The notes: generated by a model from the letters alone, not told the origin. DNA of 37,080 nt from a bacterium (GCA_027624915.1 JAQBTR010000008.1:1-37080), one strand, 5' to 3'. Numbered from the stretch's first letter, positions 6,995 to 32,996 are shown. Numbers and translations are program-made.

Positions 6995-6995
6995 A

Positions 6996-7700
6996 CTATT
7001 GATTGTCCCCTAGTTGAGATCCTTCAGTAATTTGTGGTGCCTTACCTTTGCCAGAGCTCTCTGGGTTGTACAGACTATAATAAAGTTCAATTAACTCCTC
7101 GGTATTTAGAGGGACGGCGCGTACCCCAGTTCTCACAAGTCCACTTATGACGGTGTCCACCCTCTGATAGAGTTGTGTTTTATACTCTTCAAATTTAACC
7201 TGGTCTATTGTTCCGTCGGTGTTTTTGTTTCCTCCAAATATAGTTTTTACTGTTTGCATAATACCTTGTTGTTGAGCACCAGACAGAGCGTTTGGTGTGA
7301 ATGAGACTACTATATAAAAGGTTTTTGTAACGATATTTCCTGTCTCAACAAACTCTTTTACGAACGTTATATATTCTGTTATCTGGATTCTCAAAAGCTC
7401 ATTTACTTCCTCTTTTTTTCTTGTACGCAGAATTTCTAAATAAGGCTCAATATTAAGTCTTCGTGATTGTATCGAAAACTCAACAGAAAAATCGAGCGAG
7501 TTTAGAAAGCTTTGGTACTGTAGGATGATAGCGTCTTGTTCGTCGGGAGATTTGAGCGCGAAGTTGAGGGAGGAAGCCATAAGAACACCACGTAATGAAC
7601 CGTCCTTGAGTACAACAACACCATCCCGTATTTCTTCTATTGGGACAATCTCTTGAGATGCCTTTGCATTTTGTGCTAATTGTGATTCGCTTATAGCCAT
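6996..7700 (-). CDS. VirB4 N-terminal-domain-like protein, separated from virB4 by 1 nt and in another frame (split gene or frameshift)
   Basis: IRDGVVVLKDGSLRGVLMASSLNFALKSPDEQ resembles the extreme N-terminal TrbE/VirB4 motif. The TAG stop, one nt, then the ATG of virB4 follow directly. 234 + 605 aa equals a full-length VirB4. Confidence 0.55.
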   Translation of the reverse strand: MAISESQLAQNAKASQEIVPIEEIRDGVVVLKDGSLRGVLMASSLNFALKSPDEQDAIILQYQSFLNSLDFSVEFSIQSRRLNIEPYLEILRTRKKEEVNELLRIQITEYITFVKEFVETGNIVTKTFYIVVSFTPNALSGAQQQGIMQTVKTIFGGNKNTDGTIDQVKFEEYKTQLYQRVDTVISGLVRTGVRAVPLNTEELIELYYSLYNPESSGKGKAPQITEGSQLGDNQ

Positions 7701-7833
7701 TTACCCTCCTAAATTTTTAAGAACTATTAAAAGCACGGCATCATAATTCTTTATTTGCCGGACTGTCCTTATCTTATTGTTTATATTTGTTTTCATATTA
7801 TTCGCTTTATTCTTAAAAGTTTTGGCGGGTGAA

Positions 7834-8244
7834 CTATCTCTTCAATTTTTCATTAATATCCAAAGACCAAGATAGGTCTTGAAGTTTGCTTTTTGAAAAT
7901 TTTGGCACCATTGTGTTTGGCCCGCCTTGTATTTGTTGCTGTTCTCTTTGGATTTCTTTTTCCGAATGCTTCCAGATAAACAATCTTGAGTGCGATACAT
8001 GATTTGTCATGTTATTAAGCACGGTGATTGCTGGCTGCCCGTTTATTTTGAGGAAGGCGACAGATGCGAAGAAGCCCGCACCAACTGCCGCAAGAATCCA
8101 AGAGATTATACGTGGAAGCGGAAGGACAAGCACCGTTACAACAAATCCAGCACCACCAAGAACATAAATCAATTGCTTGACCGTAAGAGGACCTAAGATT
8201 TTGTCCTCTATATCTATAAATTGTGGTACTTGAAACTGTTGCAT
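7834..8244 (-). CDS. PrgI/VirB3-like small two-TM protein
   Basis: The N-terminus (QVPQFIDIEDKILGPLTVKQLIYVLGG) followed by two TM helices matches PrgI-family proteins that precede VirB4 in Gram-positive and CPR T4SS loci. Confidence 0.55.
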   Translation of the reverse strand: MQQFQVPQFIDIEDKILGPLTVKQLIYVLGGAGFVVTVLVLPLPRIISWILAAVGAGFFASVAFLKINGQPAITVLNNMTNHVSHSRLFIWKHSEKEIQREQQQIQGGPNTMVPKFSKSKLQDLSWSLDINEKLKR

Positions 8245-8245
8245 A

Positions 8246-8938
8246 TTATTCTACTTCTTCCCTATATGGGTCTGAATTTTTTGATTGAGTTGCCGTCTTT
8301 GTTCCAGGCTTGTTTGGGGTCGATAGGGTCGGAGGCTTTTGTACGACTGGCGCTTGTTCTTGTACGACCGGTTCTTTCGATTCAAATTTTGGGGCACTTG
8401 GAATTGTAGATCCACTACCACCTTTCTCTGGAAAAATTATTGATGGAATAGCTGTTTTTTCTACGCTTGGTTTTGGAGCCGGTTTTATTATTGGTGGCTG
8501 GAGAGGTCTTGTCTCTTTTATTTCTACGGGTTGTTGAGGAGGTGTTGGGACAGCTTTTTCTCTTACATGCGTTGCAAACGATTTTGGATGCTGAGGTATA
8601 AGTTCCGTTTCAGGCTCTTCATTTGGGGCGGTTTTCAAATTTTCTTGGATTTCTTTAAAGACTTCACTATTTACATCGTCTACAACTGCTTTTGCTTGAG
8701 CCTGAGTGATACCTAGGCTTTCAGTAAGTCGTCCTGCAAAGTTTTGCGGAGATGTAAGGCCGAGCATTACATATCCAGTTTCTTCTGCAAGCACTCCAAC
8801 CTTGTCGAGCATAAGACCGTGTCGCTTACCAATATTTAGCATCTTGTCGGTTGTGGCAGAGGCAAAAAGAGCATCACGAACCCGACGAGGCAATCGTTCA
8901 TAGCGTGATAAGACTTCTTCTTGTGAAAACGTTTTCAT
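8246..8938 (-). CDS. hypothetical protein with a globular N-terminal domain and a Pro/Gln-rich low-complexity tail
   Basis: About 100 aa structured N-terminus followed by PTPPQQPVEIKETRPLQPPIIKPAPKP...; no TM segment. Operon member. Confidence 0.55.
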   Translation of the reverse strand: MKTFSQEEVLSRYERLPRRVRDALFASATTDKMLNIGKRHGLMLDKVGVLAEETGYVMLGLTSPQNFAGRLTESLGITQAQAKAVVDDVNSEVFKEIQENLKTAPNEEPETELIPQHPKSFATHVREKAVPTPPQQPVEIKETRPLQPPIIKPAPKPSVEKTAIPSIIFPEKGGSGSTIPSAPKFESKEPVVQEQAPVVQKPPTLSTPNKPGTKTATQSKNSDPYREEVE

Positions 8939-8956
8939 TTTAGTTTTTTATTTTGC

Positions 8957-11344
8957 CTAAGTTTCTTTATCCGCCTTATCTCCCATCTCTCTTTTTAGTC
9001 TTTCTACTTCTTTCTCTATATCACTCTTTCCTTTACTTATTGTTGTGTCTAACTCACCCGGGGTTTCTAGGAGTATATTACCCGTGTATAGGCGAGGATT
9101 ATCAAGCTTTTTAATCTCTTCTTGGGTTTTTGTTTGACGCTCACCCTGGGCTGCTATTTGTCTATCAACGCTTTGGATACGATCATCGATACGATCCATA
9201 TCTCCTTGCAATCTTTCTCTTTCAGCTCTGTCGGGAGCCCTGTTTCTGCGCACCTCGATTATTTGTTTTTGGGTTTCTAGTTGTGACCTTTTTGTACCGA
9301 GGTCGCCCACTTTTTCGCTGGTGTTTTTCAGTGTGTTTGCGTGCGCGGTACGGATTCCTGGGTTTGCTGCGAATTGATTAGCAAGGTCTGCATTTCCATA
9401 CTCTTCTCTAATTTTTTTCTCAAGAGATGTGCCGTCGCTAGATTTGATACCGAATCGGCTTTTAATTGCACCCAACATTTTGCTTGTTTGGTCTATATCC
9501 TTGCGTGATGTCCTGAATTCATTAAAGCCTTTTTCATTTTTCATGAAATAGTCCTGTACGTGTGTGCTGGACACGCCTTCGTTTCTATAAATTTCATGTC
9601 GGTCTTCCTTGGACATTGCGTGCATTAGTTCTCCAAGTCGTCGGTCGTAATCAGCATTTCCGGTCGGGGCCTTATCTACCTTTCCATATTCTGGGTGCTC
9701 TAGTTTCATCGCCTCGTGGACACCACCACCAGCCGCTGCAAATGCCCGAAGGTCTCCATCACTAACCCCCTGTTTTTTGAGGTTTTGTGAAAGTCGTCCA
9801 ACGCCTTCAGGTCCCATAACATTTTTAAGCTCTTTTGCGACAGACGCACGTTCCTTGCCGTCTTTCATCTGGTCGAAGACTTCTTTTTGTGCAGAGGCAT
9901 TCATGGTTGCCATCATGCGGGCCTGTGTACGAGGATCTCTACCCTTGGCCTTTTTGGCTTCTGCCTTGGCACGCTCCTTGTCAGCATCCCTACCTTTGGC
10001 AGCGAGAGTTCTAAGCCCTCCACCAATTCCAAGTCCATTTATGAGAGCCTTGCCAACTCGGCTCTGTGGTAGCACGGCGAGACCACCACGGGCCGCAGTA
10101 CCCGCCGCCCTTTGGGCTGTACGACGGACAGGTCTGTAAAGTGCACCTCTCACCTTTCCACCTATATTTCCAGCAATCTTGAGTGCACCACTAGCTCCAT
10201 ATGCCCCCATTGATTTTGCAGCAATAAGAGATGCCATAAGTAAAATACCCAAGAATATAAAACCAAGTACGAGTCCAGCTTTTGCGGTGAGTTGTGAGGC
10301 AGCCTCACCCTGGAGAGCGATCGTAAGGTCGGTAGATAAAGACGCTTTATTGACAAGAGATTCTATTCCACCCCCCGCGATAATTTTAAACACGAGATAT
10401 AAAAAGAACATATACGCTGGATAAAAGAAGGATTGTTCAAAAAGATTTTTAAACCATTTTTGTGCCATGCCGCTTGTTGTTGGGAGTACATAAAAGAGAA
10501 ATGCAAAGGGCGCCAAAATAAATAAAATCCATATATACACAATTCGTATTACGAGAAGTATTGCCCCTGCCCCGATGACAAATGTAGCAATAAGAATCAA
10601 TATGATTCCCATGATATAAGCAATAATTGCGTTCGAAAGGCGCTCATAAGTACTAAAGGGTTTGTTTACCGTTGCTTCATTTGGTGCAATAATATTTTGC
10701 GGCTTGAAGCCACTCACAAATGTTGTTGCGATATCACGACCATCTGCTACACCATCGTTATCAAGATCTGCGTTTGGATTACCCATAGCCGAATAAAACT
10801 GATTACCAAGAGCATTTGACGTATCAACAATGATGCCTGCAATCGCTAAGCTAAAGTTAACTAAAAGTGCCGAAATAATAAGCTTAAAAAGAAGTGATTT
10901 CATTCCGTAAGATTCAATCCCAAGAATGGTGGCTATCGCGATAATCAAAAGAACAAAGATATAGACAATATTTACAACATCTCGTGAAATCATCCAACCG
11001 GCATTTACAATTGGCTGGTCATAAAAGGCCTCGTTTTGGATGCTAAGTGCGATATCAAAAAGTGCGGAAGCAAGTGTAATTAAATAACTAAAGATATCAA
11101 GAGCATAAGAAAGCCCATAAGCTAATCCAAGGACTAGACAGCCAGGGATGCTGATATCCGGAGGGATAACGCTATTAACACAATACACAGGGGAGCCCTT
11201 ACCGGCGCTTTGTGCGCGACTGGCTGCCCCTATTACTGAGCCACCCGCTGTTTGTGCATGCACACTCAAAACTGGAGCAAATACAAGCATTGCGATTACA
11301 AAGAATGCGAGAATGGGTACATATTTTTTAGCGAAGGAGTGCAT
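8957..11344 (-). CDS. VirB6/TrbL-like polytopic membrane protein with a roughly 350-aa charged or coiled-coil C-terminal tail
   Basis: Signal peptide plus 6-8 TM helices in the first roughly 420 aa, then a hydrophilic K/E/R-rich tail (KERAKAEAKKAKGRD...). Adjacent to the VirB3/VirB4-like genes. Confidence 0.5.
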   Translation of the reverse strand: MHSFAKKYVPILAFFVIAMLVFAPVLSVHAQTAGGSVIGAASRAQSAGKGSPVYCVNSVIPPDISIPGCLVLGLAYGLSYALDIFSYLITLASALFDIALSIQNEAFYDQPIVNAGWMISRDVVNIVYIFVLLIIAIATILGIESYGMKSLLFKLIISALLVNFSLAIAGIIVDTSNALGNQFYSAMGNPNADLDNDGVADGRDIATTFVSGFKPQNIIAPNEATVNKPFSTYERLSNAIIAYIMGIILILIATFVIGAGAILLVIRIVYIWILFILAPFAFLFYVLPTTSGMAQKWFKNLFEQSFFYPAYMFFLYLVFKIIAGGGIESLVNKASLSTDLTIALQGEAASQLTAKAGLVLGFIFLGILLMASLIAAKSMGAYGASGALKIAGNIGGKVRGALYRPVRRTAQRAAGTAARGGLAVLPQSRVGKALINGLGIGGGLRTLAAKGRDADKERAKAEAKKAKGRDPRTQARMMATMNASAQKEVFDQMKDGKERASVAKELKNVMGPEGVGRLSQNLKKQGVSDGDLRAFAAAGGGVHEAMKLEHPEYGKVDKAPTGNADYDRRLGELMHAMSKEDRHEIYRNEGVSSTHVQDYFMKNEKGFNEFRTSRKDIDQTSKMLGAIKSRFGIKSSDGTSLEKKIREEYGNADLANQFAANPGIRTAHANTLKNTSEKVGDLGTKRSQLETQKQIIEVRRNRAPDRAERERLQGDMDRIDDRIQSVDRQIAAQGERQTKTQEEIKKLDNPRLYTGNILLETPGELDTTISKGKSDIEKEVERLKREMGDKADKET

Positions 11345-11349
11345 ACGTA

Positions 11350-12348
11350 TTAAAAGAGACTTGTTGACTCTGCATCCAAAATGCTCTTGAGTCCTTCTGA
11401 GATAGCAAGATTAATAAGCGCCTGTATTACCTCACTCATTTCGTCAGCAAGATTAAGTCCCATAAAATCGAGGTCAAGGGAGTTTGCCACTCGGTCTCCG
11501 ATAGCCTTTGCTGGTGTTTTAATTCTAAACTTGCGACATCCAACTGCATTTTCTTCGAGACAGTCAACGACTGGCAAATATCCGCCACCTGATGCAGATG
11601 CATTTCGGAAAACAGATTCGGACTCAAAGCGTCGCATGCGGTTTTCTTCGAGTGTCATAAGATAAAAATCGAGTCGATTATTATTGGATTGGCGCGTTTT
11701 TACAAAGGCATTCCACCTGCCATTTGAAAAATCGTCATAGTAATCCTCAATATTGTCTACAACATCAGTTATGGTACAACGAGCTCGGTTTTGATAACTC
11801 TGAGTTCCATAGAGACCAAGGTCGAGTACAATTTCTGGTAAAAAATCACTACAGAAGTAATTTGGATCTCCCGCAACTTGAAGCCCAAGCTCTTCAATAA
11901 AAACACCCGTCGCCTGATCTCCAAATTCTTTAAAAAATCGTTCAGGGTCTTGCAAAAAGAAAGGCTCGGCATCATCAGCAAAACCACTCTGAATCCAAGT
12001 AATAAGTTCGTTCTTAAGCGTATTTATAAAAACATTTGCGAGCATTTTTGCAATTCCATCGTAGGAGAAGATAGAGCCCGCCGCGCCCTTAATCAGCTGG
12101 AGAATGCCACTGACACTAAAAATATTTGCAACTTGAAACTCTTTATCGAGCTGGTGACCTGCGTACTGAAGTCCAGGAACGGAAACGGCAGTAATAATCG
12201 TAGGTATAGCCCCGGTAAGTCCTACATCCCACGTAGGGACAGTGGCTCGCGCCTCTTTTTGTGGTAGAAACACAAAGAGTTCAAGAGAGATAATGCTCGT
12301 AAGCAAAATGGTTGTCACAAATCGTTTCATAAAAGAGGAGCCAATCAT
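11350..12348 (-). CDS. secreted hypothetical protein (T4SS-like operon)
   Basis: N-terminal signal or TM segment (FVTTILLTSIISLELFVFLP). ATGA start-stop overlap with the upstream gene. Confidence 0.55.
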   Translation of the reverse strand: MIGSSFMKRFVTTILLTSIISLELFVFLPQKEARATVPTWDVGLTGAIPTIITAVSVPGLQYAGHQLDKEFQVANIFSVSGILQLIKGAAGSIFSYDGIAKMLANVFINTLKNELITWIQSGFADDAEPFFLQDPERFFKEFGDQATGVFIEELGLQVAGDPNYFCSDFLPEIVLDLGLYGTQSYQNRARCTITDVVDNIEDYYDDFSNGRWNAFVKTRQSNNNRLDFYLMTLEENRMRRFESESVFRNASASGGGYLPVVDCLEENAVGCRKFRIKTPAKAIGDRVANSLDLDFMGLNLADEMSEVIQALINLAISEGLKSILDAESTSLF

Positions 12349-13346
12349 ATTTTGTTTACATAATCTTGTTGAAATTGATACCCAGGTTCTTTTGTGCCAA
12401 ACACTATTTTTTTATCATCAATAAGTTTTTTTATTTCAGTAAAGATTTTTTTACTATTTTCGATTTCACTTTGGTAATGGTTCATGCCACTCGTACCAAG
12501 TATAGGGTCACGGCCATATGCCATAATCGATCGAAGCGCGAGGCTAGTGTTTGCAAGAGAGTTAAGAAGAGCTACATGAATATGGGCGGTTTCGACTGGC
12601 GTCTCAACACCAGACAAATCCCTAACGGCATCTAGATATCGTAATTGATATTTTTCTAGTTTTTCTATATTGTCGACAAGATCTTGCTCGGTAACGCCCT
12701 CTCCTTTTTCGGTGATCAAAAATGCAAGTTTATATAAAACCGTAAATTCACTTTCATACTTTTCATCAGTTAAATTATCGGGGAAACTTTTTTCCGTAAC
12801 TATCGCAACATCATTTATATACTCTTTTTCACTTCGATTATTATTTAACACAACATGTTCAATTTTGTATGGATTGTAAAGCGAGTCAACCTTTTTAATC
12901 TCTTCAATTCCCCCAGTTATTAAGGCTTTGTTGAGTCGTTCATCAAAGTCAATCTCGTATTCTTCGCCTGGGACTACATGTGCTTGAACATACTGTGCAA
13001 AATCTTGAAGGATTACGCGAGTCGGAGACAGGCTATCAATAATTGTTGGGTTAACGAGATCATTTGTTGATTGACTGCTCACAGATTCATCGCCATCAAG
13101 AATTCCGTCCCCATCAGAATCTGGATTATTTGGATCGGTGTTTCTAAGTAGCTCTTCCCAGTCTTCGAGACCATCTGCATCAGAGTCTATTCCGCGAGTT
13201 CCGGCAACTGTATCAAAAGCTGTTTTACCTTGGGGAGCAGGCCTTGTTTTTGAGTTACGAAAAGAAGAAGCAAAATATAAAAATCCAGCAGCAATAACTA
13301 AGCTCAGCATGATAAGGGTTAGCTTTTTTGATGGTAGTGCATTCAA
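12345..13346 (-). CDS. membrane-anchored protein with thrombospondin type-3-like Ca-binding repeats; first gene of the operon
   Basis: TM anchor followed by DSDADGLEDWEE...DPNNPDSDGDGILDGDE (DxDxDG repeats). Confidence 0.6.
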   Translation of the reverse strand: MNALPSKKLTLIMLSLVIAAGFLYFASSFRNSKTRPAPQGKTAFDTVAGTRGIDSDADGLEDWEELLRNTDPNNPDSDGDGILDGDESVSSQSTNDLVNPTIIDSLSPTRVILQDFAQYVQAHVVPGEEYEIDFDERLNKALITGGIEEIKKVDSLYNPYKIEHVVLNNNRSEKEYINDVAIVTEKSFPDNLTDEKYESEFTVLYKLAFLITEKGEGVTEQDLVDNIEKLEKYQLRYLDAVRDLSGVETPVETAHIHVALLNSLANTSLALRSIMAYGRDPILGTSGMNHYQSEIENSKKIFTEIKKLIDDKKIVFGTKEPGYQFQQDYVNKI

Positions 13347-13515
13347 AAGAAAGTAATACGTATAGTTCTTTCCTATCGCGTTTTACTAGATATATTGTAT
13401 CATTTTTATTCTTCTTCTAATACGATTTTTTGTTTGGGGATAAAGGATATTTTGATTCCGAGTGCCTGAAATACTGTTTTTTATTAAGAATTGATTTTTG
13501 GTGTATAATGATTGT

Positions 13516-18694: not shown

Positions 18695-18720
18695 AACCCG
18701 CATGGTGCGGGTTTTAATTT
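18695..18720. terminator. bidirectional rho-independent terminator
   Basis: AACCCGCA-tggt-TGCGGGTT is an 8-bp stem. The minus strand is followed by TTTTTCTTTT and the plus strand by TTAATTT. Confidence 0.7.
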
Positions 18721-19286
18721 ACTTTGGTTTCTAGATAATAGATGAAGGTTCTGACTTTTTCTCGGAGTGCCTCTTCTGTTGAGTCATTTACGATTGTGTA
18801 ATCCGCTCTTTTGCCGATGGCTGGGATGTTTACCTCGGTTGCAACAATCCTTTCATTTTCTTCGTAGACCTCGAAAGACATTTCGGCTTCGCCAACCTTT
18901 TCACCCTGAGTTAGTCGTCTTGGGTAGCGAATTTCGACGGGAGCCGTTACAGAGACAAGTGTGTTTGGTTCGAATGACCGAAGACAGTCGTGATCTGGCC
19001 ACCAACGAATACCCTCAACGATTACTGGGCCATCGGCAACTTTTTTTACTTTATCGTATGTATGGCGACATATTGCATCAGGGCCAAGCTCATCTCTCAT
19101 AGCTATTGCGAGCTCTTGGAGCGCTGGGCGCGTTGCCTCAATGCCGGCATACTCTAAGGTTTCGAAGAGAACGTCAGAGAAACGAATTATAGGAATGGGC
19201 ATACCCATCATCTTGGGGAGCATACGAGAAAAAGTGCTTTTACCGGCGTGTTTCTCGCCCACAACTCCAATCACATGGGTTGCCAC
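18714..19286 (-). CDS. P-loop nucleotide or nucleoside kinase-like protein (dephospho-CoA kinase-like fold?)
   Basis: N-terminal Walker A (VIGVVGEKHAGKSTFSRML); 190 aa. Family assignment is tentative. Confidence 0.55.
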   Translation of the reverse strand: MATHVIGVVGEKHAGKSTFSRMLPKMMGMPIPIIRFSDVLFETLEYAGIEATRPALQELAIAMRDELGPDAICRHTYDKVKKVADGPVIVEGIRWWPDHDCLRSFEPNTLVSVTAPVEIRYPRRLTQGEKVGEAEMSFEVYEENERIVATEVNIPAIGKRADYTIVNDSTEEALREKVRTFIYYLETKVN

Positions 19287-19308: not shown

Positions 19309-20814
19309 CTAGCTTATCTCAGTCGGTCGAAATTGCAAAGCTTCGAGTAAATGATCTTTTTCAATATTCTTTTTTTCTGAAAGATCTGCGATTGTGCGAG
19401 CCACCTTGAGAATGCGGTGATATGCACGAGCTGATAGGTCAAGTTTTTGTGCGGCCGTAGTAAGTAGCGCCTGCTCGCTACTTTCTAAATTACAAAACTT
19501 TTCTATTTCTTTGAGTGTAAGTTTGCTATTTGATTTTTTCTGACGCCCAACCTGAAGTGCTCGCGCTCGGATAACACGCTTACGTATGGTATCTGACGAG
19601 TCACACGTGTAATTTTTATCTGAGAGTTTTTTGTGGTCAATTTGTGGGACGGTAAGCCAAATGTCCACCCGATCCATTATGGGGCCAGAAATTTTTCGTG
19701 CATATTGCATCATTTGCCGTGGGGAACAGACACATTCTTTTTGTGAATCTTTATTTCCGCATGGACATGGGTTCATGGCAGCAACCAGCATAATATCTGC
19801 TGGAAATGTCGTTGTGCCCCGTGCGCGTGATATTGATACGAGCCTATCTTCGAGGGGCTGTCTAAGCGTTTCTATGACACGACGTTCAAATTCTGGAAAC
19901 TCATCTAAAAACAGGATTCCGCGATGGGCTAGAGTAACCTCCCCTGGGCGAGGAATCGTTCCTCCTCCAATAAGTGAAACATAAGAAGCTGTATGGTGAG
20001 GATTTCTAAACGGACGTTCACGTACCACATTGTTTTTTAGTGTTCCTGCGATGCTATGTATTGAAGTAAGTTCAACGGCCTCATGATAATTGAGTGGCGG
20101 AAGAATGGATTGAGTAGCTCGTGCAAGAAGTGTTTTTCCGGTGCCGGGTGGACCGGTAAATGCTACATGATGATTTCCGGCTGCTGCTATTTCAACGCCG
20201 CGTTTAGCAAACTCCTGACCCCTTATATCCTTAAAGTCCACAGAAAATGACATAGGAAATGTTTCCATAGAAAGAGGAGGCGAGGGAGTTAAGATCGCCT
20301 TTTTGGTGAGGTGCAAAATAAGATCACTGAGTTTTGAAATCCCATAAATAAAAATACCATCTATTAAAAGAGCTTCATGAGAAGAGGCTTCTGGAACAAA
20401 AACCTCTTTAAATCCCGCTTCGCGCGCTGCAAGGGCAAGTGGCAAAATCCCACGAACCGGTCGTACTGACCCATCAAGAGCGAGCTCTCCCACAAAAAAT
20501 TTTTCGGCGGGATTAAAATCTACTTGTTTAGACTCTCTCAGGTATGCAAGAGCGATTGGTAGATCAAAAGCAGCACCTTCTTTTGGGAGGTCTGCCGGCG
20601 CCAGATTAACTGTTATGCGGTGATTCTTTTTTTGAGGCGGGCGGAACCCAGAGTTTTTGATCGCAGAGGAAACACGTTCTCGAGACTCTTCGACCGCCTT
20701 GTCTGGCAGTCCAACAATGGTAAAGCGATGAAGTCCTGGGGTGAGATCTATCTCAACCTCAATTGGTGTTCCTGCGAGACCAACGATTTGGCCTGAGTAG
20801 AGTTTTGTAGACAT
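19309..20814 (-). CDS. comM: YifB/ComM-family Mg-chelatase-like AAA+ ATPase
   Basis: N-terminal Lon-like domain (MSTKLYSGQIVGLAGTPIEVEIDL...), AAA+ Walker A (FTGPPGTGKTLLA), and the C-terminal ComM domain. Confidence 0.9.
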   Translation of the reverse strand: MSTKLYSGQIVGLAGTPIEVEIDLTPGLHRFTIVGLPDKAVEESRERVSSAIKNSGFRPPQKKNHRITVNLAPADLPKEGAAFDLPIALAYLRESKQVDFNPAEKFFVGELALDGSVRPVRGILPLALAAREAGFKEVFVPEASSHEALLIDGIFIYGISKLSDLILHLTKKAILTPSPPLSMETFPMSFSVDFKDIRGQEFAKRGVEIAAAGNHHVAFTGPPGTGKTLLARATQSILPPLNYHEAVELTSIHSIAGTLKNNVVRERPFRNPHHTASYVSLIGGGTIPRPGEVTLAHRGILFLDEFPEFERRVIETLRQPLEDRLVSISRARGTTTFPADIMLVAAMNPCPCGNKDSQKECVCSPRQMMQYARKISGPIMDRVDIWLTVPQIDHKKLSDKNYTCDSSDTIRKRVIRARALQVGRQKKSNSKLTLKEIEKFCNLESSEQALLTTAAQKLDLSARAYHRILKVARTIADLSEKKNIEKDHLLEALQFRPTEIS

Positions 20815-20854
20815 AGATGTATTCCTAGCAGATGCGCCTAGGGTTTAGCAATAA

Positions 20855-20883
20855 TTGACCGTGAGAAATCAGCGTGCTATAAG
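20855..20883 (+). promoter_or_regulatory. sigma70-type promoter TTGACC-17-TATAAG for the GC-rich cassette gene
   Basis: TTGACC at 20855-20860, a 17-nt spacer, TATAAG at 20878-20883, then AGGAGG at 20895-20900 and the ATG at 20905. Confidence 0.55.
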
Positions 20884-20904
20884 GAGTCAGACGTAGGAGG
20901 AATT

Positions 20905-21342
20905 ATGTCAGGAGCACGTACTGGTTATTTTGGACCGGTGGATCCTTATGATCCGGTTGCGATGGATAGGACCCTAATGTCACCAAGCAATCGCCTAGAT
21001 CTGACGGTAGTCGTTGCCGCTAGTCGAGGCGTTCCCATGCACCCCTCGCTCCCTGCAGCGTGTCTTATAGATCCAGCTCTCTGGCCACTGCCCGCAGCGC
21101 ACCTTCCAGATCAATCCCACAAGAGACCAGAGAAGTCCAAGGGTGGATTCTCAATTCATTCAGCTGAGTTTTTGTATTGTGAGAAGGGGGCGATGGGATT
21201 GCCAACTCCTGCAGACCGAGTCGCAACATTTCTTTCCTGCAACTTGCCAAGCATGCACTTTAAGATGATTGGTATGGTGAATGGCAGGTCGGACTCAATC
21301 ATAATTTTCTACCAAAACCCAGAAGAGCTTCCATTAGACTAA
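20905..21342 (+). CDS. hypothetical protein (145 aa) encoded in a GC-rich islet; no recognisable family
   Basis: Strong SD (GTAGGAGGAATT-ATG) and an uninterrupted 145-codon frame in roughly 55-60% GC DNA. A rho-independent terminator follows immediately after the stop. Confidence 0.5.
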   Translation: MSGARTGYFGPVDPYDPVAMDRTLMSPSNRLDLTVVVAASRGVPMHPSLPAACLIDPALWPLPAAHLPDQSHKRPEKSKGGFSIHSAEFLYCEKGAMGLPTPADRVATFLSCNLPSMHFKMIGMVNGRSDSIIIFYQNPEELPLD

Positions 21343-21343
21343 A

Positions 21344-21371
21344 CTCCCGACAAGCGGGAGTCTTTTATTTT
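21344..21371 (+). terminator. rho-independent terminator
   Basis: CTCCCG-acaa-GCGGGAG followed by TCTTTTATTTT. Confidence 0.8.
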
Positions 21372-21381
21372 AGGGTGGGTT

Positions 21382-21573
21382 TTAGAGAAAAATTGAGAAG
21401 AGCCGTGGAGTAGCTGTTTGTCGTGTTTGGTGATAGGTAAGTTGTTGTAAAAGAAGCTTGTGACGTCTTGCGTCTTGTCTGTATGAACGACCCTTAATTA
21501 TTTTGAGGTCGATTCGATTGTTTACTTTGTCGAGCTCTGTTGTGATTACTCGTTCGAATTGTTTGCTGCTCAT
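21382..21573 (-). CDS. small basic hypothetical protein (63 aa) 9 nt downstream of lexA, probably co-transcribed
   Basis: ATG 9 nt after the lexA stop, with no hairpin between them. The next terminator-like hairpin is at 21344-21371. No clear SD. Confidence 0.35.
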   Translation of the reverse strand: MSSKQFERVITTELDKVNNRIDLKIIKGRSYRQDARRHKLLLQQLTYHQTRQTATPRLFSIFL

Positions 21574-21582
21574 GTTTTTAAT

Positions 21583-22152
21583 TTATGCGTATTTTCTAAT
21601 AACGGCCTTTACGATTCCTCCTACGCGGAGATACTCACGTGGGAATATAGAATCAAAGTTTTTGTTGGCGGGTTTCAGATAAGGTTGACCCCGTTTCGAT
21701 TCGTAATACTTGAGTGTCCAGTCTCCGTCTACTTCGGCAACGACGATGTCTCCTTGCTTGGCAACCGATGCTTGTTCAATTAGTATGCGGTCACCATCAT
21801 GTATACCGGCATCAATCATCGACTCTCCCTTAACTGTCAACATGTAAGTCTCACCAGGTTTTCGTATTAGGAAGTCATCAAGACTAATGGCATCGTTTAT
21901 ATCAGCTATCGCTTCATGTGGAATACCGGCCTCAACAAGTCCTAGCATGGCGACACCTCCGAAGATGTTTTGTGGTATGAGGTGCCCGCCCGAATCCTTT
22001 TCTACCATCCCCTCGTCTACCATATTGTTGATGAGTTTGTAGACGGAGTTTTTAGACTTGAACTTAAACATCTCCATAAATTCTTTGTAGCCTGGCATCC
22101 GACGATGCTCTCTATAAAAACTAACTATCTTTTGTTTGCGCTCTTTATCCAT
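21583..22152 (-). CDS. lexA: LexA repressor (S24 peptidase)
   Basis: wHTH N-terminus, cleavage and catalytic region (VKGESMIDAGIHDGD ... GGIVKAVIRKY). Start set at the first ATG (MDKERKQ); an upstream in-frame TTG at 22227 would add 25 aa. Confidence 0.85.
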   Translation of the reverse strand: MDKERKQKIVSFYREHRRMPGYKEFMEMFKFKSKNSVYKLINNMVDEGMVEKDSGGHLIPQNIFGGVAMLGLVEAGIPHEAIADINDAISLDDFLIRKPGETYMLTVKGESMIDAGIHDGDRILIEQASVAKQGDIVVAEVDGDWTLKYYESKRGQPYLKPANKNFDSIFPREYLRVGGIVKAVIRKYA

Positions 22153-22276
22153 CCCGTTAGTGATAGGTCGTCTGGGACGACCGTATTTGTTTAGTTGGTA
22201 ATTATTGGTTCTAAGTTTTGTTATCAATCCTGCTTTGTGATTTTATATACTAGTCACTAACAGGATCCATGAAAAT

Positions 22277-22305
22277 AGTATAGGTGAACCATAGTTCACC
22301 ATCAA
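22277..22305 (-). promoter_or_regulatory. lexA promoter TTGATG-17-TATACT with a LexA (Cheo-type) box GGTGAAC-n4-GTTCACC in the spacer
   Basis: On the minus strand: TTGATG GTGAACTATGGTTCACC TATACT. GAAC-N4-GTTC is the Gram-positive-type LexA box core. The layout is that of classic autoregulation. Confidence 0.7.
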
Positions 22306-22333
22306 CCAAATCCCTGTGGATAGCCTTAAGGTG

Positions 22334-22362
22334 TTGCAAATAAAGGATGTTTTGGCTATAAT
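22334..22362 (+). promoter_or_regulatory. sigma70 promoter TTGCAA-17-TATAAT driving the candidate sRNA
   Basis: TTGCAA at 22334-22339, a 17-nt spacer, TATAAT at 22357-22362. Divergent from the lexA promoter. Confidence 0.55.
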
Positions 22363-22368
22363 TTTTGT

Positions 22369-22585
22369 GGGCTGGGAGCTCATAAGGATTACTCATCGGG
22401 TGCAGCGCACCAGGATGGGGAAAAGGTTGCCTCTGGACCTAGCTCATGTAAATCTCATGACAATAAAGGTGAGTAAAGTGGCAAAGAGCCTTCGACCGTT
22501 CGTAACCAAGCTACCACTATCCAATAGGGATAGCCCAAGGGCTCCCAGTCCGCCGTTTCAATCGACCATGCGTGGTCGATTTTTT
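22369..22585 (+). ncRNA. candidate small RNA (about 215 nt) of unknown class; a 6S-like closed-end fold is possible
   Basis: A consensus promoter and an intrinsic terminator (ATCGACCA-tgcg-TGGTCGAT then TTTTT at 22561-22585) delimit a unit with no credible CDS. The 5' end GGGCUGGGAGC pairs with GCUCCCAGUCC at 22541-22551. No downstream gene on this strand. Confidence 0.4.
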
Positions 22586-22600
22586 AATGTCCGAATAACG

Positions 22601-22630
22601 AAACAAAAAATCCGGCTACCTAGTAGCCGG
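22601..22630 (-). terminator. rho-independent terminator for the 22616-23137 gene
   Basis: CCGGCTAC-cta-GTAGCCGG; the minus strand is followed by ATTTTTTGTTT. The stop codon lies in the stem. Confidence 0.6.
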
Positions 22631-23137
22631 CTCGATAAGTAGGTTGTGATGAACAAAGTGTACGACGTATGTCCCATCAATTCGTTCTCCAAGATCACTT
22701 AGCGTAAATTGTATGTTTTTGTTGGCTCGTTTTCTGACAGTAATCCATCCTTTGGCGAGCCCAAGTGGGGCGCCATTACCCTCTTGTGAATATGTGTGGG
22801 GGACAAAACATTTTTGTAAGCCCGCGCCTCCATTTGGGTCTGGCTTTCCATGCCTCATGATTTTATCCACGGATAAATCATTATCAAAATCTCCGTCAAA
22901 GAGCTCATACCGTAGTGGTATTATTACGCGACGTTCAAGTAGACGTTCAAACGCATTCCCCGGAAGCGTCCAAACAAATCTCCCGTCATGACCGTCCTTA
23001 ATAGTAAAAAAGCTAAATTTGCCGGCAACATCTTTAACCCAAGCATATTCAATTGATCGTATTCCCTCATGCTTGCCATATAACGAGAGGTGACTAAGAG
23101 CCTCTTCGTCAGTAAGTTTTATTGTTCTTTGGGGCAA
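22616..23137 (-). CDS. hypothetical protein (about 173 aa)
   Basis: Long ORF. Start reassigned to an in-frame TTG 7 nt after a strong SD (AAAGGAGGT), because the track GTG start lies in the T-tract of the upstream terminator. Confidence 0.5.
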   Translation of the reverse strand: MPQRTIKLTDEEALSHLSLYGKHEGIRSIEYAWVKDVAGKFSFFTIKDGHDGRFVWTLPGNAFERLLERRVIIPLRYELFDGDFDNDLSVDKIMRHGKPDPNGGAGLQKCFVPHTYSQEGNGAPLGLAKGWITVRKRANKNIQFTLSDLGERIDGTYVVHFVHHNLLIEPATR

Positions 23138-23169
23138 AAAGCCACCTCCTTTGTTCTTGTGAGATACTA

Positions 23170-23532
23170 TCACAAAAAAGCCCCGAGAAGTTCTCGGGGA
23201 AGGGGCTGGCCACCATCATCATTGGGACCCGTTGTTTCGTGTCTGAGCTTAATTAGTGAGGTTTGGATTTCTTGGAAGTGGATGGAAGCGCGCGGATCAA
23301 AAAACATATCTATATGTCGATCAAGAGCTTCGATACAGGCCTCGAGAAGCTCAAGCGCAACATGAGAGTCTGCAACACCGAGGTGTTCATTCGCGCCTCT
23401 CCAATCATCTAAAGCTTTGAATGCAGAGACGTAAGCATTTCGCGTGTGCTTAATTCCGGCTATTCGTAGGTAGATGACAAGGGTGAAAAACCCCAAAAGA
23501 ACTCCTCCCGTAAGAGCACCCTGAATGGTCAT
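23170..23532 (-). CDS. small single-TM hypothetical protein (GC-rich islet)
   Basis: Start moved to an internal ATG (MTIQGALTGGVLLGFFTLVIYL...) with GGAG 6 nt upstream. The track N-terminus is encoded by the upstream gene's terminator hairpin. Confidence 0.4.
   Translation of the reverse strand: MTIQGALTGGVLLGFFTLVIYLRIAGIKHTRNAYVSAFKALDDWRGANEHLGVADSHVALELLEACIEALDRHIDMFFDPRASIHFQEIQTSLIKLRHETTGPNDDGGQPLPRELLGAFL
23181..23199 (-). terminator. hairpin terminator (CCCCGAGAA-g-TTCTCGGGG) followed by T6 on the minus strand
   Basis: Perfect 9-bp inverted repeat with an A6 run on the plus strand. It overlaps the last codons of the 23170-23532 ORF. Confidence 0.55.
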
Positions 23533-23583
23533 GAGGATCTCCAAATCTTTTCCCAGTCTATGTAGATTATGAGAAAAAGAAAA

Positions 23584-23606
23584 GGGCCCCGCTTTAAGCG
23601 GGGCCG
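23584..23606 (-). terminator. GC-rich hairpin terminator (GGCCCCGCTT-t-AAGCGGGGCC) with the stop codon of the upstream gene in its loop
   Basis: 10-bp stem; the minus strand is followed by CTTTTCTTTTTCTC. Confidence 0.6.
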
Positions 23607-23947
23607 GGGAGGAGGCTTGCTTGGAGTGCGCCACAGATGCGATCGTTCTGTTCAAAAAGATGTCGTGCCATGCTGATGGCTAGGGCGACGTCGTCGGTGT
23701 CGTATGCGTCTCTCATGTGCTGACAACCTCCAAGCCCAAAGAACTTGTGTTCGTCGGGCATGAAATCGTCACGTTCTAGGCGGTCTACTTCTCGCATGTA
23801 GCGATTACGCAAAGGCCTGTACAGCACGAGCATGTCCTCGATGTCCTGACGTCTCAACAGGACGACGACTCTGGGGTCGAGTGGCAGGAATACTACGTCG
23901 GAGCGTTGCCCGACTGGCCAAATTGAGCTGCCAAGTTGTGGTGCCAT
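23594..23947 (-). CDS. hypothetical protein (117 aa) in a GC-rich islet
   Basis: Excellent SD (CCAAGGAGGAGTTTAA-ATG), its own terminator, about 55% GC, no recognisable family. Confidence 0.55.
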   Translation of the reverse strand: MAPQLGSSIWPVGQRSDVVFLPLDPRVVVLLRRQDIEDMLVLYRPLRNRYMREVDRLERDDFMPDEHKFFGLGGCQHMRDAYDTDDVALAISMARHLFEQNDRICGALQASLLPGPA

Positions 23948-24201
23948 TTAAACTCCTCCTTGGAAATGGAACTATGTAAAAAGAGATTAAAACAAAAAGA
24001 GCCACACGTCAACCCCCACATTAATATTTGTATTGTTGTGCTATAAATTTGATGACATAAACCAGGATTTGGCGCGTGTAATGTTTTTGATACAATCTAG
24101 AAATAAGGCACAACAAAAATTCATAATGCAAATATTAGTGCAGGGGGTCAAGAGCTCTTTTTGTTTTGAATTTAGAGTAGAGAAAAATTTTTGAGAATAC
24201 T

Positions 24202-24555
24202 CTACTTTGAGTGGTTAACGCAGGTTCGTGCCGCTGGATTTGCCCGAAGACGATTTTCTAGAATTTCTTCTTTCCCAACCTCGCACGTACCATATGTTCC
24301 ATCCTTGATACGGTTTAAAGCACCATTGATATTTACGAGTTTTGCCTCAAGTACGGCATTCACACCAAGTGCGTTACTGTATTCTTCAACCTCGTCCGCC
24401 ATATCGTTTTTGTCAGAGGGCTCAACATTAAGATCCGGGTATTTTGCCTCCCAGTCGTTAGGGTTATCTGGATTTTGCCGAGAGACAGAAGATAGAGTTT
24501 CCTCTATAGTTTTCTTCTCATCAAGCAAAAGCTTTTCAAATTCTTTTACATTCAT
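24202..24555 (-). CDS. DksA/TraR-family-like protein (degenerate C4 finger)
   Basis: Coiled-coil N-terminus and a C-terminus (GTYGTCEVGKEEILENRLRANPAARTCVNH) resembling the DksA/TraR zinc-finger region with only 2 Cys. Confidence 0.5.
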   Translation of the reverse strand: MNVKEFEKLLLDEKKTIEETLSSVSRQNPDNPNDWEAKYPDLNVEPSDKNDMADEVEEYSNALGVNAVLEAKLVNINGALNRIKDGTYGTCEVGKEEILENRLRANPAARTCVNHSK

Positions 24556-28473: not shown

Positions 28474-28572
28474 GGGAGGATTATAGCAACTAAAAACTCA
28501 AAAGTCAAGCCAGGAAACCCTTTATTTATAACAAATATGCATAGATAAGATTGTGCGACATGGTACAATTGG

Positions 28573-29463
28573 GTGGTGAGCATAGATAAGGCATTACGGG
28601 AATTTTTAGAGGATTTGGAGCTCGAAAAGGGCAGAAGTCAAAAAACGATTCAAAACTATGAGCATTATTTGGCGCGGTTCTTTCGTGAGGCCAAAATAAA
28701 GAAGCCTTCGGACATAACTGACGCGCGAGTACGCGAATTTAGGCTCAAATTAAATCGAACAGGACTTGGGGCTAAGACGCGAAACTATCACTTGATAGCT
28801 TTGCGCATGTTTTTAAAATATTTGGTGAAACGCGAAATTCTCTCACTCGCACCTGATCGCATTGAGCTTGCGAAACTTCCAGATCGAGACATAGATATCC
28901 CCCCATCTGAAGATCTTGATAGACTTTTAAAAGCACCAGATACAAATACGCTTCAAGGACTACGGGACCGTGCAATATTGGAAATGCTTTTTTCTACGGG
29001 TCTTCGCGTGTCAGAACTCACCTCTCTTGATTGTGACACCATCGATTTTTCACGAGACGAATTTTCTATACGCGGTAAGGGTAGCAAGGTGCGAATTGTT
29101 TTTTTGTCTCCTGACGCCAAGCAGGCATGTCAGGCATACACAAAAAAACGAGAGGACGTTGGGGAGGCGCTTTTTGTTGGCACGCAGAAAAAGAATCAGT
29201 CACGACTTACAACCAGGCAAGTCGAACGACTCGTAGCGCGCTATGCCGTTAAATCAGGAATCCCCGGCAAGGTAACTCCACATACACTACGACATATGTT
29301 TGCGACCGATCTTTTGATGAACGGTGCTGACATTAGGTCAGTTCAGGTATTGCTTGGTCACTCATCAATAACAACAACACAAATATATACTCACATGACA
29401 GACCGCCAGTTGCGGGATGTTCACAAGGCGTTTCATGGGAAGAGGAGACGAAAAACAAGTTAG
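28573..29463 (+). CDS. tyrosine site-specific recombinase, XerC/XerD family
   Basis: 296 aa with an N-terminal core-binding domain and catalytic R...HxxR...Y (LRHMFATDLL ... TQIYTHM). GTG start 4-7 nt after an extended -10 (TGgTACAAT), so possibly leaderless. Confidence 0.85.
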   Translation: MVSIDKALREFLEDLELEKGRSQKTIQNYEHYLARFFREAKIKKPSDITDARVREFRLKLNRTGLGAKTRNYHLIALRMFLKYLVKREILSLAPDRIELAKLPDRDIDIPPSEDLDRLLKAPDTNTLQGLRDRAILEMLFSTGLRVSELTSLDCDTIDFSRDEFSIRGKGSKVRIVFLSPDAKQACQAYTKKREDVGEALFVGTQKKNQSRLTTRQVERLVARYAVKSGIPGKVTPHTLRHMFATDLLMNGADIRSVQVLLGHSSITTTQIYTHMTDRQLRDVHKAFHGKRRRKTS

Positions 29464-30384: not shown

Positions 30385-31527
30385 ATGAGTATGGGAATGC
30401 AGGTCGCATTAACGATTCTCACAATCTATGCCCTCTTTCTTCTGGTGGCTGGCGTCGGCATAGCGCTTCTCATGCACTATGCCGATGACGAACTCAAGAA
30501 GATTCGAGATCTTCTCCATACGGCAGTGGTCACGATTCGTTTGAAGGGCGTCGTGTTTCTCGTTCAAGAGAATCACTCGATTGTCTTTCGGAACGTATGG
30601 GCGACTGATATCGGTCACCTCGCAGGCTGGGTCTCTAAGACCATCGGAACGCGCGGGATCGCCAAACCTCTCTGTAGAAGAGAGAAGTGCCCTTATGAGG
30701 GCACAGATGCATGCACTGATGAACACCACCTAGGACTCGGCCCTCTCAAGTATAAGATTAGAGCCCCTGTCTATCTCACCGGCCCACAGCAGGGTCGTCC
30801 AGGGTCGGTCAAGCAGTCTACCTACAACGAGATTGCTGCCGGCACGACGAGGCAGTACAGAGGTTACAAGATCAAGCGCGAGGGGTATCGATTCTGGGTG
30901 CCGTCAGTGTGGCAGGATCTCTTCGACGTTGTGAACATGCGTCCCGTGTCGGTTTCGGTCGACCGGGATTACGAGTTCAACACTGGAGATAACCAGGAGG
31001 TTCTCATTAAGTTCCGGTACGTGTCGCAGGTTATCGACCCAATCGCTTTTCAAGTAAGGGTCGGTAATGATCAGCGCGCGGCCTGGGAGAAGGAGCAGGT
31101 CATCTCAATGATTCAGCAGATGACCAACGCCTACACGGCCGATCAGTTGACTGGCGCTGACGATGTTCAGCTCGGTTCGCTCGGTCAGATGCTTGCGGAG
31201 GTGTACAACTTCTTCATGATGGCCTACGGGCTTCAGGTTTCCGTAATTCAGATTCTTCAGATCTCACCGCCAACCGTAATCGCAGAGCGTGCAGCCCATG
31301 TACGTGCGGCTCAGCTTGCACGGAAAGCGGCGAAAGCCGAGGGTGAGAGGATCAGGGAGATCGTCGATATCACGGGCGCAACGCCCGATGAAGTCGTGCG
31401 CGCCATCAGCTATCAGAATATGGTCAACCAGGGTTCTACCACGTTCATCAGGGTCGCGGAAGCGATTAAGGATGAGTTTGCGGCGGGACGCCGAGAGGCC
31501 AAGAAAGCAAAGGAGAAGGCAGCATGA
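30385..31527 (+). CDS. SPFH/band-7 (stomatin/HflK-like) domain membrane protein with a Cys-containing insertion
   Basis: N-terminal TM, then SPFH-like segments (VVFLVQENHSIVFRNV ... GLQVSVIQILQISPPTVIAERAAHVRAAQLARKAAKAEGERI) and a coiled-coil tail. The roughly 90-aa insertion contains CRREKCPYEGTDAC. Confidence 0.55.
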   Translation: MSMGMQVALTILTIYALFLLVAGVGIALLMHYADDELKKIRDLLHTAVVTIRLKGVVFLVQENHSIVFRNVWATDIGHLAGWVSKTIGTRGIAKPLCRREKCPYEGTDACTDEHHLGLGPLKYKIRAPVYLTGPQQGRPGSVKQSTYNEIAAGTTRQYRGYKIKREGYRFWVPSVWQDLFDVVNMRPVSVSVDRDYEFNTGDNQEVLIKFRYVSQVIDPIAFQVRVGNDQRAAWEKEQVISMIQQMTNAYTADQLTGADDVQLGSLGQMLAEVYNFFMMAYGLQVSVIQILQISPPTVIAERAAHVRAAQLARKAAKAEGERIREIVDITGATPDEVVRAISYQNMVNQGSTTFIRVAEAIKDEFAAGRREAKKAKEKAA

Positions 31528-32996
31528 CCAAGGTCAAGAATTTCTTCAACGTAACCGGCAGGTTTTTACTTCGGTACCCCCTGCTGGTTGGATTCCTCGT
31601 AGTACTTCCGTTCCTCTTCGCCCTTGTATATGCCACCTGGGGTGGCATCGGGGCGGTCTTCTCGGGGGGTGCTGGCACTGGGCCTGTACCTATCCCCACG
31701 AGAGTTCTCACCTCGCTTGAGTGGGGCTGGATGGTGGCACACGTCGCCCTCTTTGCCCTCTTCTACTGTGTGTATCGTCACCGTCCATCACCCCCTGAGA
31801 AGGAATTCGATAAGGATGGTGAGCCGAGGCTTCATTACCTCGGTACAGATGGTTGGGAGCTTCGAAACGAGTACTGCCGGAAAATCCGTGAGACTCTCAA
31901 CATCCTCGTTGGATATTTCATCATCCTCTGGGCGGTGGAGCTATCCTCGTGGCCGATCAGTTCGTTCTGGCTGCCACGATGGCCGGTCGCCACAGCATGG
32001 ATCCTCATCACTCCGCTCGTTGCGGGAGGATTCCTTTCCTACTACGTCGACTGGACGAAGTCGTCTAGTCGACGAGCCCTTTGGGCATTCTATGCAGTAG
32101 CGTCCGTGATTTTTGCTCTGTCCCTCACCTTCGGGTGGATGGATGCACAAGATCCTGTCGCTGAAACACTGCGTCAGACCAAAGGCGAAATTCTCGAAGC
32201 AAGGTTAACTCCTTTAGAGGAAAAAGCCGAGCTCCTTCGTGAAGCATGGCGCGCAGGTTTCATCACTGAAGATGAGGCCGTAGAAAAGATCGCGAAGCTT
32301 CGCGAGATTCACCAGAGCGCCGAAAAGAAGTTCGGCAACCCCAACCCGCTTGCGGATGTTGTGGTTCCTGAGGCAGAAAAAGTCCTCGGCAAAGGTGGCG
32401 AATACATTGGCGGCGAGTTTTCCGAATTCTTCGGACCCTTCGTCAATGCCACCCCGTCGGAGTATCGGTACCTATGGTTTAACCCTTTCTTCTGGGGCCT
32501 TCTGATCATCGCTATCGCGGTCTTCGCGAAACTGGCGACCCGGTATGAAGGTGTTCGTACATTCATCGCGTGGATGACATTCCTTGCGGTCTGCCTTGTT
32601 CTTATCATCGTGTTTACAGCAGCTCATGAGCCAGGTGGACTCGCTCGGTTCAGCTCGGAGAAACAGACAGAGACACGAACAGATGCCGACTCTGTTGCCT
32701 TGTTCAGTCATCATCGAACCTTCGACATCAAGTCGGGAGATCGTATCCGAGTTTGGCCGAAAAATCATCCAAGGCCAAACATCACCGGAGGTGACGGGAT
32801 GTGGTATGTAACGTATGCCGCAGGGTCAACGATTCTCGGCTTCGAAATGTACCGATCGGGTGGCATGGTCGTTCAGGCTGGCACCGTTTCCGGGCCAGCA
32901 CAACTTCCAAACAATTTTTACGAGATGGATTTGGTGGCACAGAAAGGCGCTGTCAGATTCACTCTCCACTGCAATGGCTGTACCTACAGCCAATAG
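31524..32996 (+). CDS. polytopic membrane protein (about 8 TM) with a C-terminal soluble beta-rich domain; SPFH operon partner (NfeD-like role is speculative)
   Basis: ATGA overlap with the SPFH gene, many hydrophobic helices, and a C-terminal domain (FDIKSGDRIRVWPKNHPRP...). Confidence 0.5.
   Translation: MTKVKNFFNVTGRFLLRYPLLVGFLVVLPFLFALVYATWGGIGAVFSGGAGTGPVPIPTRVLTSLEWGWMVAHVALFALFYCVYRHRPSPPEKEFDKDGEPRLHYLGTDGWELRNEYCRKIRETLNILVGYFIILWAVELSSWPISSFWLPRWPVATAWILITPLVAGGFLSYYVDWTKSSSRRALWAFYAVASVIFALSLTFGWMDAQDPVAETLRQTKGEILEARLTPLEEKAELLREAWRAGFITEDEAVEKIAKLREIHQSAEKKFGNPNPLADVVVPEAEKVLGKGGEYIGGEFSEFFGPFVNATPSEYRYLWFNPFFWGLLIIAIAVFAKLATRYEGVRTFIAWMTFLAVCLVLIIVFTAAHEPGGLARFSSEKQTETRTDADSVALFSHHRTFDIKSGDRIRVWPKNHPRPNITGGDGMWYVTYAAGSTILGFEMYRSGGMVVQAGTVSGPAQLPNNFYEMDLVAQKGAVRFTLHCNGCTYSQ

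Follow-up and report, generated by a model that had tools for sequence, protein, structure and literature searches.

The locus upstream of comM raises the question of whether a 145-codon open reading frame without known relatives (ORF145) is a genuine gene and, if it is, how it came to lie beside comM. We analysed the frame within a stretch of 37,080 nucleotides (the window) from a metagenome-assembled genome of an uncultured, Paceibacteria-like member of the Patescibacteria. The features discussed below are collected in Table 1. We consider ORF145 likely to be a genuine monocistronic orphan accessory gene which encodes a 145-aa protein and which was acquired with, or arose in, a lineage-specific insertion. 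The frame is also called as a gene by public annotation pipelines, and its NCBI entry is hypothetical protein O2794_02825 ('MAG: hypothetical protein O2794_02825 [bacterium]').

Table 1. Positions of ORF145, its expression signals, the surrounding insertion and related elements (coordinates are those of the window unless a related locus is named).
Feature	Position	Strand	Remarks
comM/yifB	19309-20814	-	Mg-chelatase-like AAA ATPase, intact, 501 aa; Pfam Mg_chelatase, ChlI, Mg_chelatase_C
comM promoter	20822-20851	-	-35 TTGCTA at 20851-20846, 18-nt spacer, TGc-TAGGAA, -10 at 20827-20822
Lineage-specific insertion	20852-24201		about 3.3 kb, bounded by dksA and the comM promoter; from comparison with relatives
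ORF145 promoter	20855-20883	+	-35 TTGACC at 20855-20860, 17-nt spacer, TGc-TATAAG at 20875-20883; read from the sequence
ORF145 Shine-Dalgarno sequence	20895-20900	+	AGGAGG, 4 nt before the ATG at 20905
ORF145	20905-21342	+	145 codons, ATG at 20905, TAA at 21340-21342; from the ORF list
Intrinsic terminator of ORF145	21343-21371	+	stem ACTCCCG/CGGGAGT, loop ACAAG, then CTTTTATTTT; from the terminator scan
p63	21382-21573	-	conserved small partner of lexA, convergent with ORF145; tblastn
lexA	21583-22227	-	public gene call starts at 22098; Pfam Peptidase_S24, NCBIfam TIGR00498
LexA operator	22284-22299		GTGAAC-CATA-GTTCAC, perfect palindrome upstream of lexA
LexA boxes in relatives	L017:4755-4772, L018:3086-3103, L021:5608-5625, L022:6084-6101, L023:5706-5723, L090:5847-5864
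Orphan ORF p185	22616-23173	-	preceded by AGGAGG; no family match
Orphan ORF p161	23170-23655	-	called as 23170-23532; no family match
Orphan ORF p117a	23594-23947	-	preceded by AGGAGG; no family match
Imperfect palindrome	23989-24167		about 180 nt; dksA-side edge of the insertion, in the gap from the dksA stop to the p117a start
dksA/traR-type zinc-finger gene	24202-24555	-	PF01258 gene call; ancestral upstream neighbour of comM by synteny
TGnTAnAAT boxes (examples)	13501-13509, 28480-28488, 28561-28569		ahead of the gene at 13516, of rpsO (28473-28207, minus strand) and of xerC at 28576, respectively

The promoter, the AGGAGG Shine-Dalgarno sequence, the 145-codon frame and the terminator were all found, on reading the sequence, where the initial annotation had placed them. 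The -10 element of the promoter is an extended one whose hexamer ends in G and lacks the usual conserved final T, and because of this G the promoter is absent from a consensus promoter scan. Its architecture (TTGACC-17-TGcTATAAG) is that of the S15-operon promoter of the same genome (TTGACT-17-TGcTATAAT). The AGGAGG starts 11 nt past the extended -10 and precedes the first ATG of the longest frame, and its spacing to this ATG is short. The terminator hairpin is formed by a GC-rich stem of 7 bp (21343-21361) and begins 1 nt past the stop codon. A start codon, an open frame, a ribosome-binding site, a promoter and a terminator, the features of a bacterial protein-coding gene, are thus all present in ORF145. 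In the mechanism that we propose, transcription would proceed from a sigma-70 promoter of the host type whose -10 is extended, and a 14-nt leader carrying the perfect AGGAGG would drive translation. The terminator placed right after the stop codon would end the transcript and would also shield the convergent lexA-p63 operon from read-through. We infer from these signals that ORF145 is actually translated. A 12-mer that contains its Shine-Dalgarno sequence (GTAGGAGGAATT/C; 20893-20904, plus strand) was observed to be repeated in inverted form within the 3' end of lexA (21614-21625, minus strand), and this recurrence is probably due to chance.

The strength of these signals depends on how often they would arise by accident. 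A chance of about 0.001 had been given for the open frame, which assumes a uniform composition and one frame; in first-order Markov simulations with the local composition and all six frames, an open run of at least 146 codons occurred with P = 0.019. The hexamer AGGAGG is found at 20 sites in the window when both strands are counted (74,160 strand positions), and a perfect copy lying 4-12 nt before a start (a 9-nt window) is expected with p of about 0.002. Four of the 20 sites are located 4-7 nt ahead of ORFs of at least 100 codons, and three of these four belong to the insertion described below. A terminator within 30 nt of a stop has p of about 0.02, as the scan gave 2 sites in 2,600 strand positions where about 1 is expected from shuffles. 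The product of the three values for frame, Shine-Dalgarno sequence and terminator is about 1e-6 per site, a rough figure in which they are taken as independent. The expression signals of ORF145 are therefore no accident of composition, and their coincidence is far beyond chance.

Codon usage was assessed with a log-odds model, for which 20 confident genes of the window served as the training set. The score of ORF145 is +0.075 when it is read in its own frame, and in the five others it ranges from -0.09 to -0.41. The confident genes score 0.16 +/- 0.05 (leave-one-out), which places ORF145 1.6 SD lower; the score of p63, a gene with homologues, is +0.079 and those of the neighbouring orphans are 0.07-0.12. 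The codon usage thus picks the right frame, yet it is weak and not decisive, and the expression signals are the stronger argument for coding. The predicted protein is rich in Pro, Met and Cys, with 11.7% Pro against 4.6% in the genome and 5.5% Met against 2.0%, while Glu, Lys and Ile are low, and it has neither a signal peptide nor a membrane segment. The Pro-rich N-terminal two-thirds is probably disordered. AlphaFold2, which was run on the single sequence only, returned a mean pLDDT of 36 with no confident fold, as is expected for orphans whether real or not. Because of the single-sequence input this value is weak evidence and is uninformative either way, and at such a pLDDT a fold search is pointless.

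These weaker observations bear on an alternative that we regard as unlikely, although it is the main rival, in which the frame is spurious and the 550 bp are a non-functional spacer left by the rearrangement or insertion that placed lexA-p63 near comM. The promoter-like and Shine-Dalgarno-like motifs would then be idle, the terminator would serve the convergent lexA-p63 operon, and stop codons would be less dense because the GC content is slightly higher. A spurious frame would account for the complete absence of relatives, the atypical amino-acid composition and the lack of a confident fold; a codon score of at least 0.075 was also reached by 12% of the known-spurious open frames (n = 98), and wrong-frame open frames of up to 186 codons occur inside confident genes of the window. 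The hairpin is otherwise explicable too, since the stop of the convergent p63 is only 20 nt away. However, it is the ORF145 strand that carries the terminator's T-run, and the tail which follows the hairpin on the p63 strand, TTAGTCTAAT, is poor. An AGGAGG 4 nt before an ATG and 11 nt past an extended -10 of host consensus is very unlikely without a function, and the five other frames score clearly worse than that of ORF145. The initial annotation had also pointed to opposite-strand ORFs, and one of 61 codons was indeed seen in this region.

The compositional contrast is smaller than first described. The flagged interval has a GC content of 49.3% against a window mean of 43.4% (SD 4.6%), and 11% of equal-sized windows reach at least this value; of the 55-60% GC first described, in a backbone of about 40%, a value of 55% is reached only in a 220-bp core (20940-21160) and not in the interval as a whole. 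Other parts of the window attain up to 57% near 31 kb. The most GC-rich part (30385-32996) carries an SPFH/Band-7 gene and a 490-aa gene without a known family, and is located just upstream of a tRNA cluster. The codon scores of these two genes are the lowest among all the long ORFs (0.07 and 0.02), and the segment is therefore probably another compositionally foreign one. At the other end of the window, positions 1577-13346 contain a T4SS/conjugation-like cluster with TrbL/VirB6, a TraG/VirB4-like ATPase, PrgI and a T4SS pilin, between which family-less ORFs are interleaved.

The GC-rich patch does not represent an overlooked RNA gene. The initial annotation had named an Rfam match over the region as evidence against a protein-coding gene, and a cmscan of the whole window against Rfam 15 (4227 families) at the gathering thresholds returned four tRNAs only, all of them far from ORF145. 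When matches with E <= 10 were considered between 20600 and 21600, three were obtained, all at chance level, the best with 18.7 bits against a cut-off of 90 bits. All three are either driven by the terminator or lie downstream of it, and the two inside the cassette are both driven by the hairpin. ARAGORN found no tmRNA. The minimum free energy of the 496-nt transcript shows no excess stability over dinucleotide shuffles (plus strand, z = +0.26; minus strand, z = -0.40), and a scan with 120-nt windows gave none below z = -2 except that of the terminator, the sole element of the region with local stability (plus strand, z = -1.8; minus strand, z = -2.9). The reading of the region as a divergent form of some known structured RNA, such as RNase P RNA, tmRNA or 6S, in which the open frame would be incidental, is thus extremely improbable. 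Its sole backing was the prior expectation in the initial annotation that a GC-rich island in an AT-rich genome is often an RNA gene, and with no Rfam match at gathering, no tmRNA and folding z-scores near zero it is effectively refuted.

Relatives of ORF145 were sought widely. A word-indexed search of 5.8 billion proteins returned the self-match only, and no family match was obtained in Pfam, PHROG, NCBIfam or PADLOC, so that the earlier description of an ORF without a recognisable family is borne out. HMMER, run in full over 1.84 billion cluster representatives, gave no true homologue and one extra match, P0002 (E = 7.5e-5), which was rejected as it is a translated tandem repeat in which five weak matches are summed. 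There was also no match among JGI metagenome contigs, IMG/VR, the INPHARED (GenBank) phages or the PLSDB plasmids. We considered whether the region might be the remnant of a neighbouring or slot-resident gene and discarded this idea, as tblastn, tblastx, blastn and nhmmer comparisons with 93 related loci and with the rest of the window were empty. The closest available genomes have a ComM that is only 69% identical, so the search for conservation of ORF145 has low power, and at this distance, the best ComM identity found anywhere, non-coding DNA cannot be aligned. As the protein has no relatives, purifying selection cannot be shown. The evidence for a protein-coding gene is circumstantial and consists of the expression signals together with the frame-specific codon bias.

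In a bolder reading, ORF145, alone or together with the three neighbouring orphans, would found a new family of functional proteins, arisen de novo in a Patescibacteria lineage or derived from an unsampled mobile element or phage of these episymbionts, with a role in DNA damage, competence or host interaction. The gene would be maintained next to comM, which encodes a DNA-uptake helicase, and to the SOS repressor, and would be driven by a strong promoter of the host type. We give this reading a slim chance, and a strain-specific accessory protein is the most that can be said of ORF145. Were its expression demonstrated, the protein could serve as a candidate for work on the origin or persistence of orphan genes in extremely reduced genomes.

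The position of ORF145 relative to comM differs from that first reported. The cassette was said to lie at the 3' region of comM; it is in fact located 5' of this minus-strand gene and diverges from it. The comM product aligns with its homologues over residues 1-500, and its reading frame, which begins with the ATG at 20814, is uninterrupted. The comM -10 element is separated from this ATG by 7 nt, which implies that the comM mRNA may be leaderless or nearly so. A yTGCTAnrrA motif 7-9 nt before the comM start is common to the relatives that carry a spacer at this point (L082, L084, L088, L089 and L090), the form in L086 being degenerate. Since comM keeps its own conserved promoter, the insertion proper begins near 20852, and some 30 nt at the left of the flagged interval belong to comM. 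Of the interval 20820-21375 as originally delimited, the part with the gene therefore holds, and the left end (20820-20851) does not.

The promoters of comM and ORF145 are arranged back-to-back and are divergent, with their -35 hexamers 3 bp apart (20846-20851 on the minus strand and 20855-20860 on the plus strand). This arrangement, and the fact that the unit has a defined start and end, would suit a non-coding or dual-function transcript of about 480 nt which acts in cis, either on comM by promoter interference or towards lexA-p63 by convergent transcription. Such a transcript is nevertheless very unlikely here, as the region has no Rfam match, no excess structure beyond the terminator and no conservation in any relative. 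Transcription would be ended by the terminator before p63 is reached, so no antisense overlap arises, and the Shine-Dalgarno sequence, the ATG and the long open frame would be left unexplained.

ORF145 can be placed in its genomic setting by comparing the dksA-comM junction with that of relatives. Of 80 distant species representatives (ComM 48-58% identical), 63 have a dksA/traR-type gene upstream of comM, in nearly all cases as its direct neighbour, and the conserved string there is p283-dksA-comM-M23 peptidase-uvrD. In the closer clade (ComM 62-69% identical), ten distinct genomes were compared, and all ten share the backbone rpsO-NYN-pnp-p283-dksA-[slot 1]-comM-[slot 2]-M23-uvrD-rRNA adenine methyltransferase, with xerC before rpsO in most of them. 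Slot 1, between dksA and comM, measures 3-194 bp in seven of the ten (L084/85, L086/87, L089, L090, L091, L093 and L094); the distance in the window is 3,387 bp. Because dksA adjoins comM in most relatives, the DNA which separates them in the window is an insertion. The other genomes carry different cargo in slot 1, namely a 597-aa orphan (L082/83), an IS200-type Y1 transposase (L088) and a 266-aa fragment of a periplasmic-binding protein (L092).

Slot 2, between comM and the M23 peptidase gene, is variable as well. Its cargo was found to be a CBS protein (L084-87), lexA with p63 (L090), a transposase with prephenate dehydratase (L092), a PAP2 gene (L093) or a PaaX-like gene (L094), and it is empty in L088, L089 and L091. 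In the window this slot holds a 190-aa P-loop kinase-like gene (18714-19286, minus strand) with AAA_17/AAA_18 matches and a PHROG match of the deoxynucleoside monophosphate kinase type, and this gene has no counterpart among the 93 related loci. The data support the view that both flanks of comM are recurrently variable gene slots in this Patescibacteria family.

Three transcription units make up the insertion: the plus-strand ORF145, at the comM-proximal edge, and the minus-strand units lexA-p63 and p117a-p161-p185. In the proposed sequence of events, a segment of about 3.3 kb would have entered the normally tight dksA-comM junction in this lineage only, and it would have brought a relocated lexA/p63 SOS module together with three more orphan ORFs. 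The initial annotation had envisaged an interruption of 0.55 kb in a comM-lexA interval that relatives would show uninterrupted. The inserted unit includes lexA, so there is no ancestral comM-lexA interval to interrupt. Family and homologue searches with p185, p161 and p117a returned no relatives, and none of the four orphans of the insertion, ORF145 among them, is present in any of the 93 related loci. A phage or plasmid origin of the whole insertion was also considered and was not retained, given that no DNA match was found in phages and that p185, p161 and p117a have no relatives.

No integrase, transposase or recombinase domain was found in any ORF between 20852 and 24201 with Pfam, PHROG or NCBIfam. 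The nearest tyrosine recombinase (28576-29463) belongs to the backbone and stands next to rpsO in six of the ten closest relatives. A repeat search between 19000 and 25500 gave no direct or inverted repeats bracketing the insertion. At the dksA-proximal edge we noticed a long imperfect palindrome built of nested inverted repeats (I2 and I7; 14/14 and 18/22). Folded as a DNA hairpin it has z = -3.45, and none of 200 shuffles was as stable. Its right arm contains a promoter-like TTGACG-17-TAATCT ahead of p117a. The palindrome has no counterpart at the comM edge and does not match the IS200-type element of L088. It may derive from a MITE-like element as a relic, or form a symmetric promoter/terminator region.

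The translation signals of the inserted genes also set them apart from the backbone. A perfect AGGAGG precedes three of the four orphans (ORF145, p117a and p185) and is rare ahead of backbone genes. The backbone genes were observed to be mostly without any Shine-Dalgarno sequence, and several genes that are first in their operons carry, just 4-7 nt ahead of the start codon, an extended -10 box (TGnTAnAAT; examples in Table 1). This pattern suggests that leaderless mRNAs may be the default in this genome. The strong Shine-Dalgarno sequences of the insertion, as opposed to mostly none in the backbone, could be a cheap marker of recent acquisition in such genomes. ORF145 presumably came from an unsampled donor or arose locally, in either case with its neighbouring Shine-Dalgarno-led orphans. 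The earlier claim of a real foreign gene can be kept in part: a self-contained, family-less gene in non-ancestral DNA is a reasonable description, whereas the GC contrast is modest and the coding evidence circumstantial.

The lexA gene in the insertion was assigned with 115.4 bits against TIGR00498, for which the cut-off is 110.95. Homologues of p63 that are 41-49% identical adjoin lexA in five of the related loci (tblastn; L017, L018, L021, L023 and L090), and six further Patescibacteria loci likewise have a perfect GTGAAC-N4-GTTCAC box, of the 'Cheo box' type of Gram-positive bacteria, ahead of the lexA/p63 pair. In these loci as in the window, lexA was seen to be paired with this conserved family-less protein of about 60 aa. 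The order is box-p63-lexA in the Nomurabacteria loci and box-lexA-p63 in the window and in L090. The only perfect extended LexA box of the window is the one upstream of lexA. A second perfect GAAC-N4-GTTC at 23741-23752 lies inside the p117a frame and upstream of p161; about 0.6 such sites are expected by chance in the window, and this one may be a coincidence. The ORF145 promoter contains no LexA box, the best match between 20780 and 20920 having 5 mismatches in 12, and ORF145 is not beside lexA in any of the six other lexA loci examined. For these two reasons ORF145 does not belong to the conserved SOS module, and SOS regulation of ORF145 was rejected on the basis of its promoter.

The nearest known systems can now be compared with this locus. 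The SOS network of the Patescibacteria was reportedly the topic of work by Sanchez-Osuna, Barbe and Erill in 2017 (Environ Microbiol). ORF145 resembles a member of a LexA regulon in that it stands beside lexA-p63, with a lexA that has an operator of the GAAC-N4-GTTC type, and it differs in that its own promoter has no LexA box.

The initial annotation drew an analogy with insertion hotspots at comM in other bacteria. Islands that integrate into comM, such as those of the AbaR type in Acinetobacter baumannii, break up the comM frame, bring genes for transposition or integration with them and have target-site duplications on either side. The present locus shares with them the physical association of variable or foreign DNA with comM. 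Here, however, comM is intact, the insertion lies at its 5' flank upstream of the comM promoter, and there is neither an integrase or transposase nor a pair of bracketing repeats, so that the analogy does not hold and a comM-targeting island was rejected.

The closest likeness is with ORFans and strain-specific hypothetical genes that occupy variable slots and make up the accessory 'flexible' gene pool of prokaryotes. As in those cases, ORF145 has no homologues, its composition and its style of translation initiation are atypical of the backbone, and its slot carries different cargo in different relatives. Nothing about it is qualitatively different from such genes. ORF145 is an ordinary strain-specific ORFan, already annotated publicly as a hypothetical protein, and it stands out among them for its complete set of expression signals and for its host, a member of the Patescibacteria with a reduced genome.
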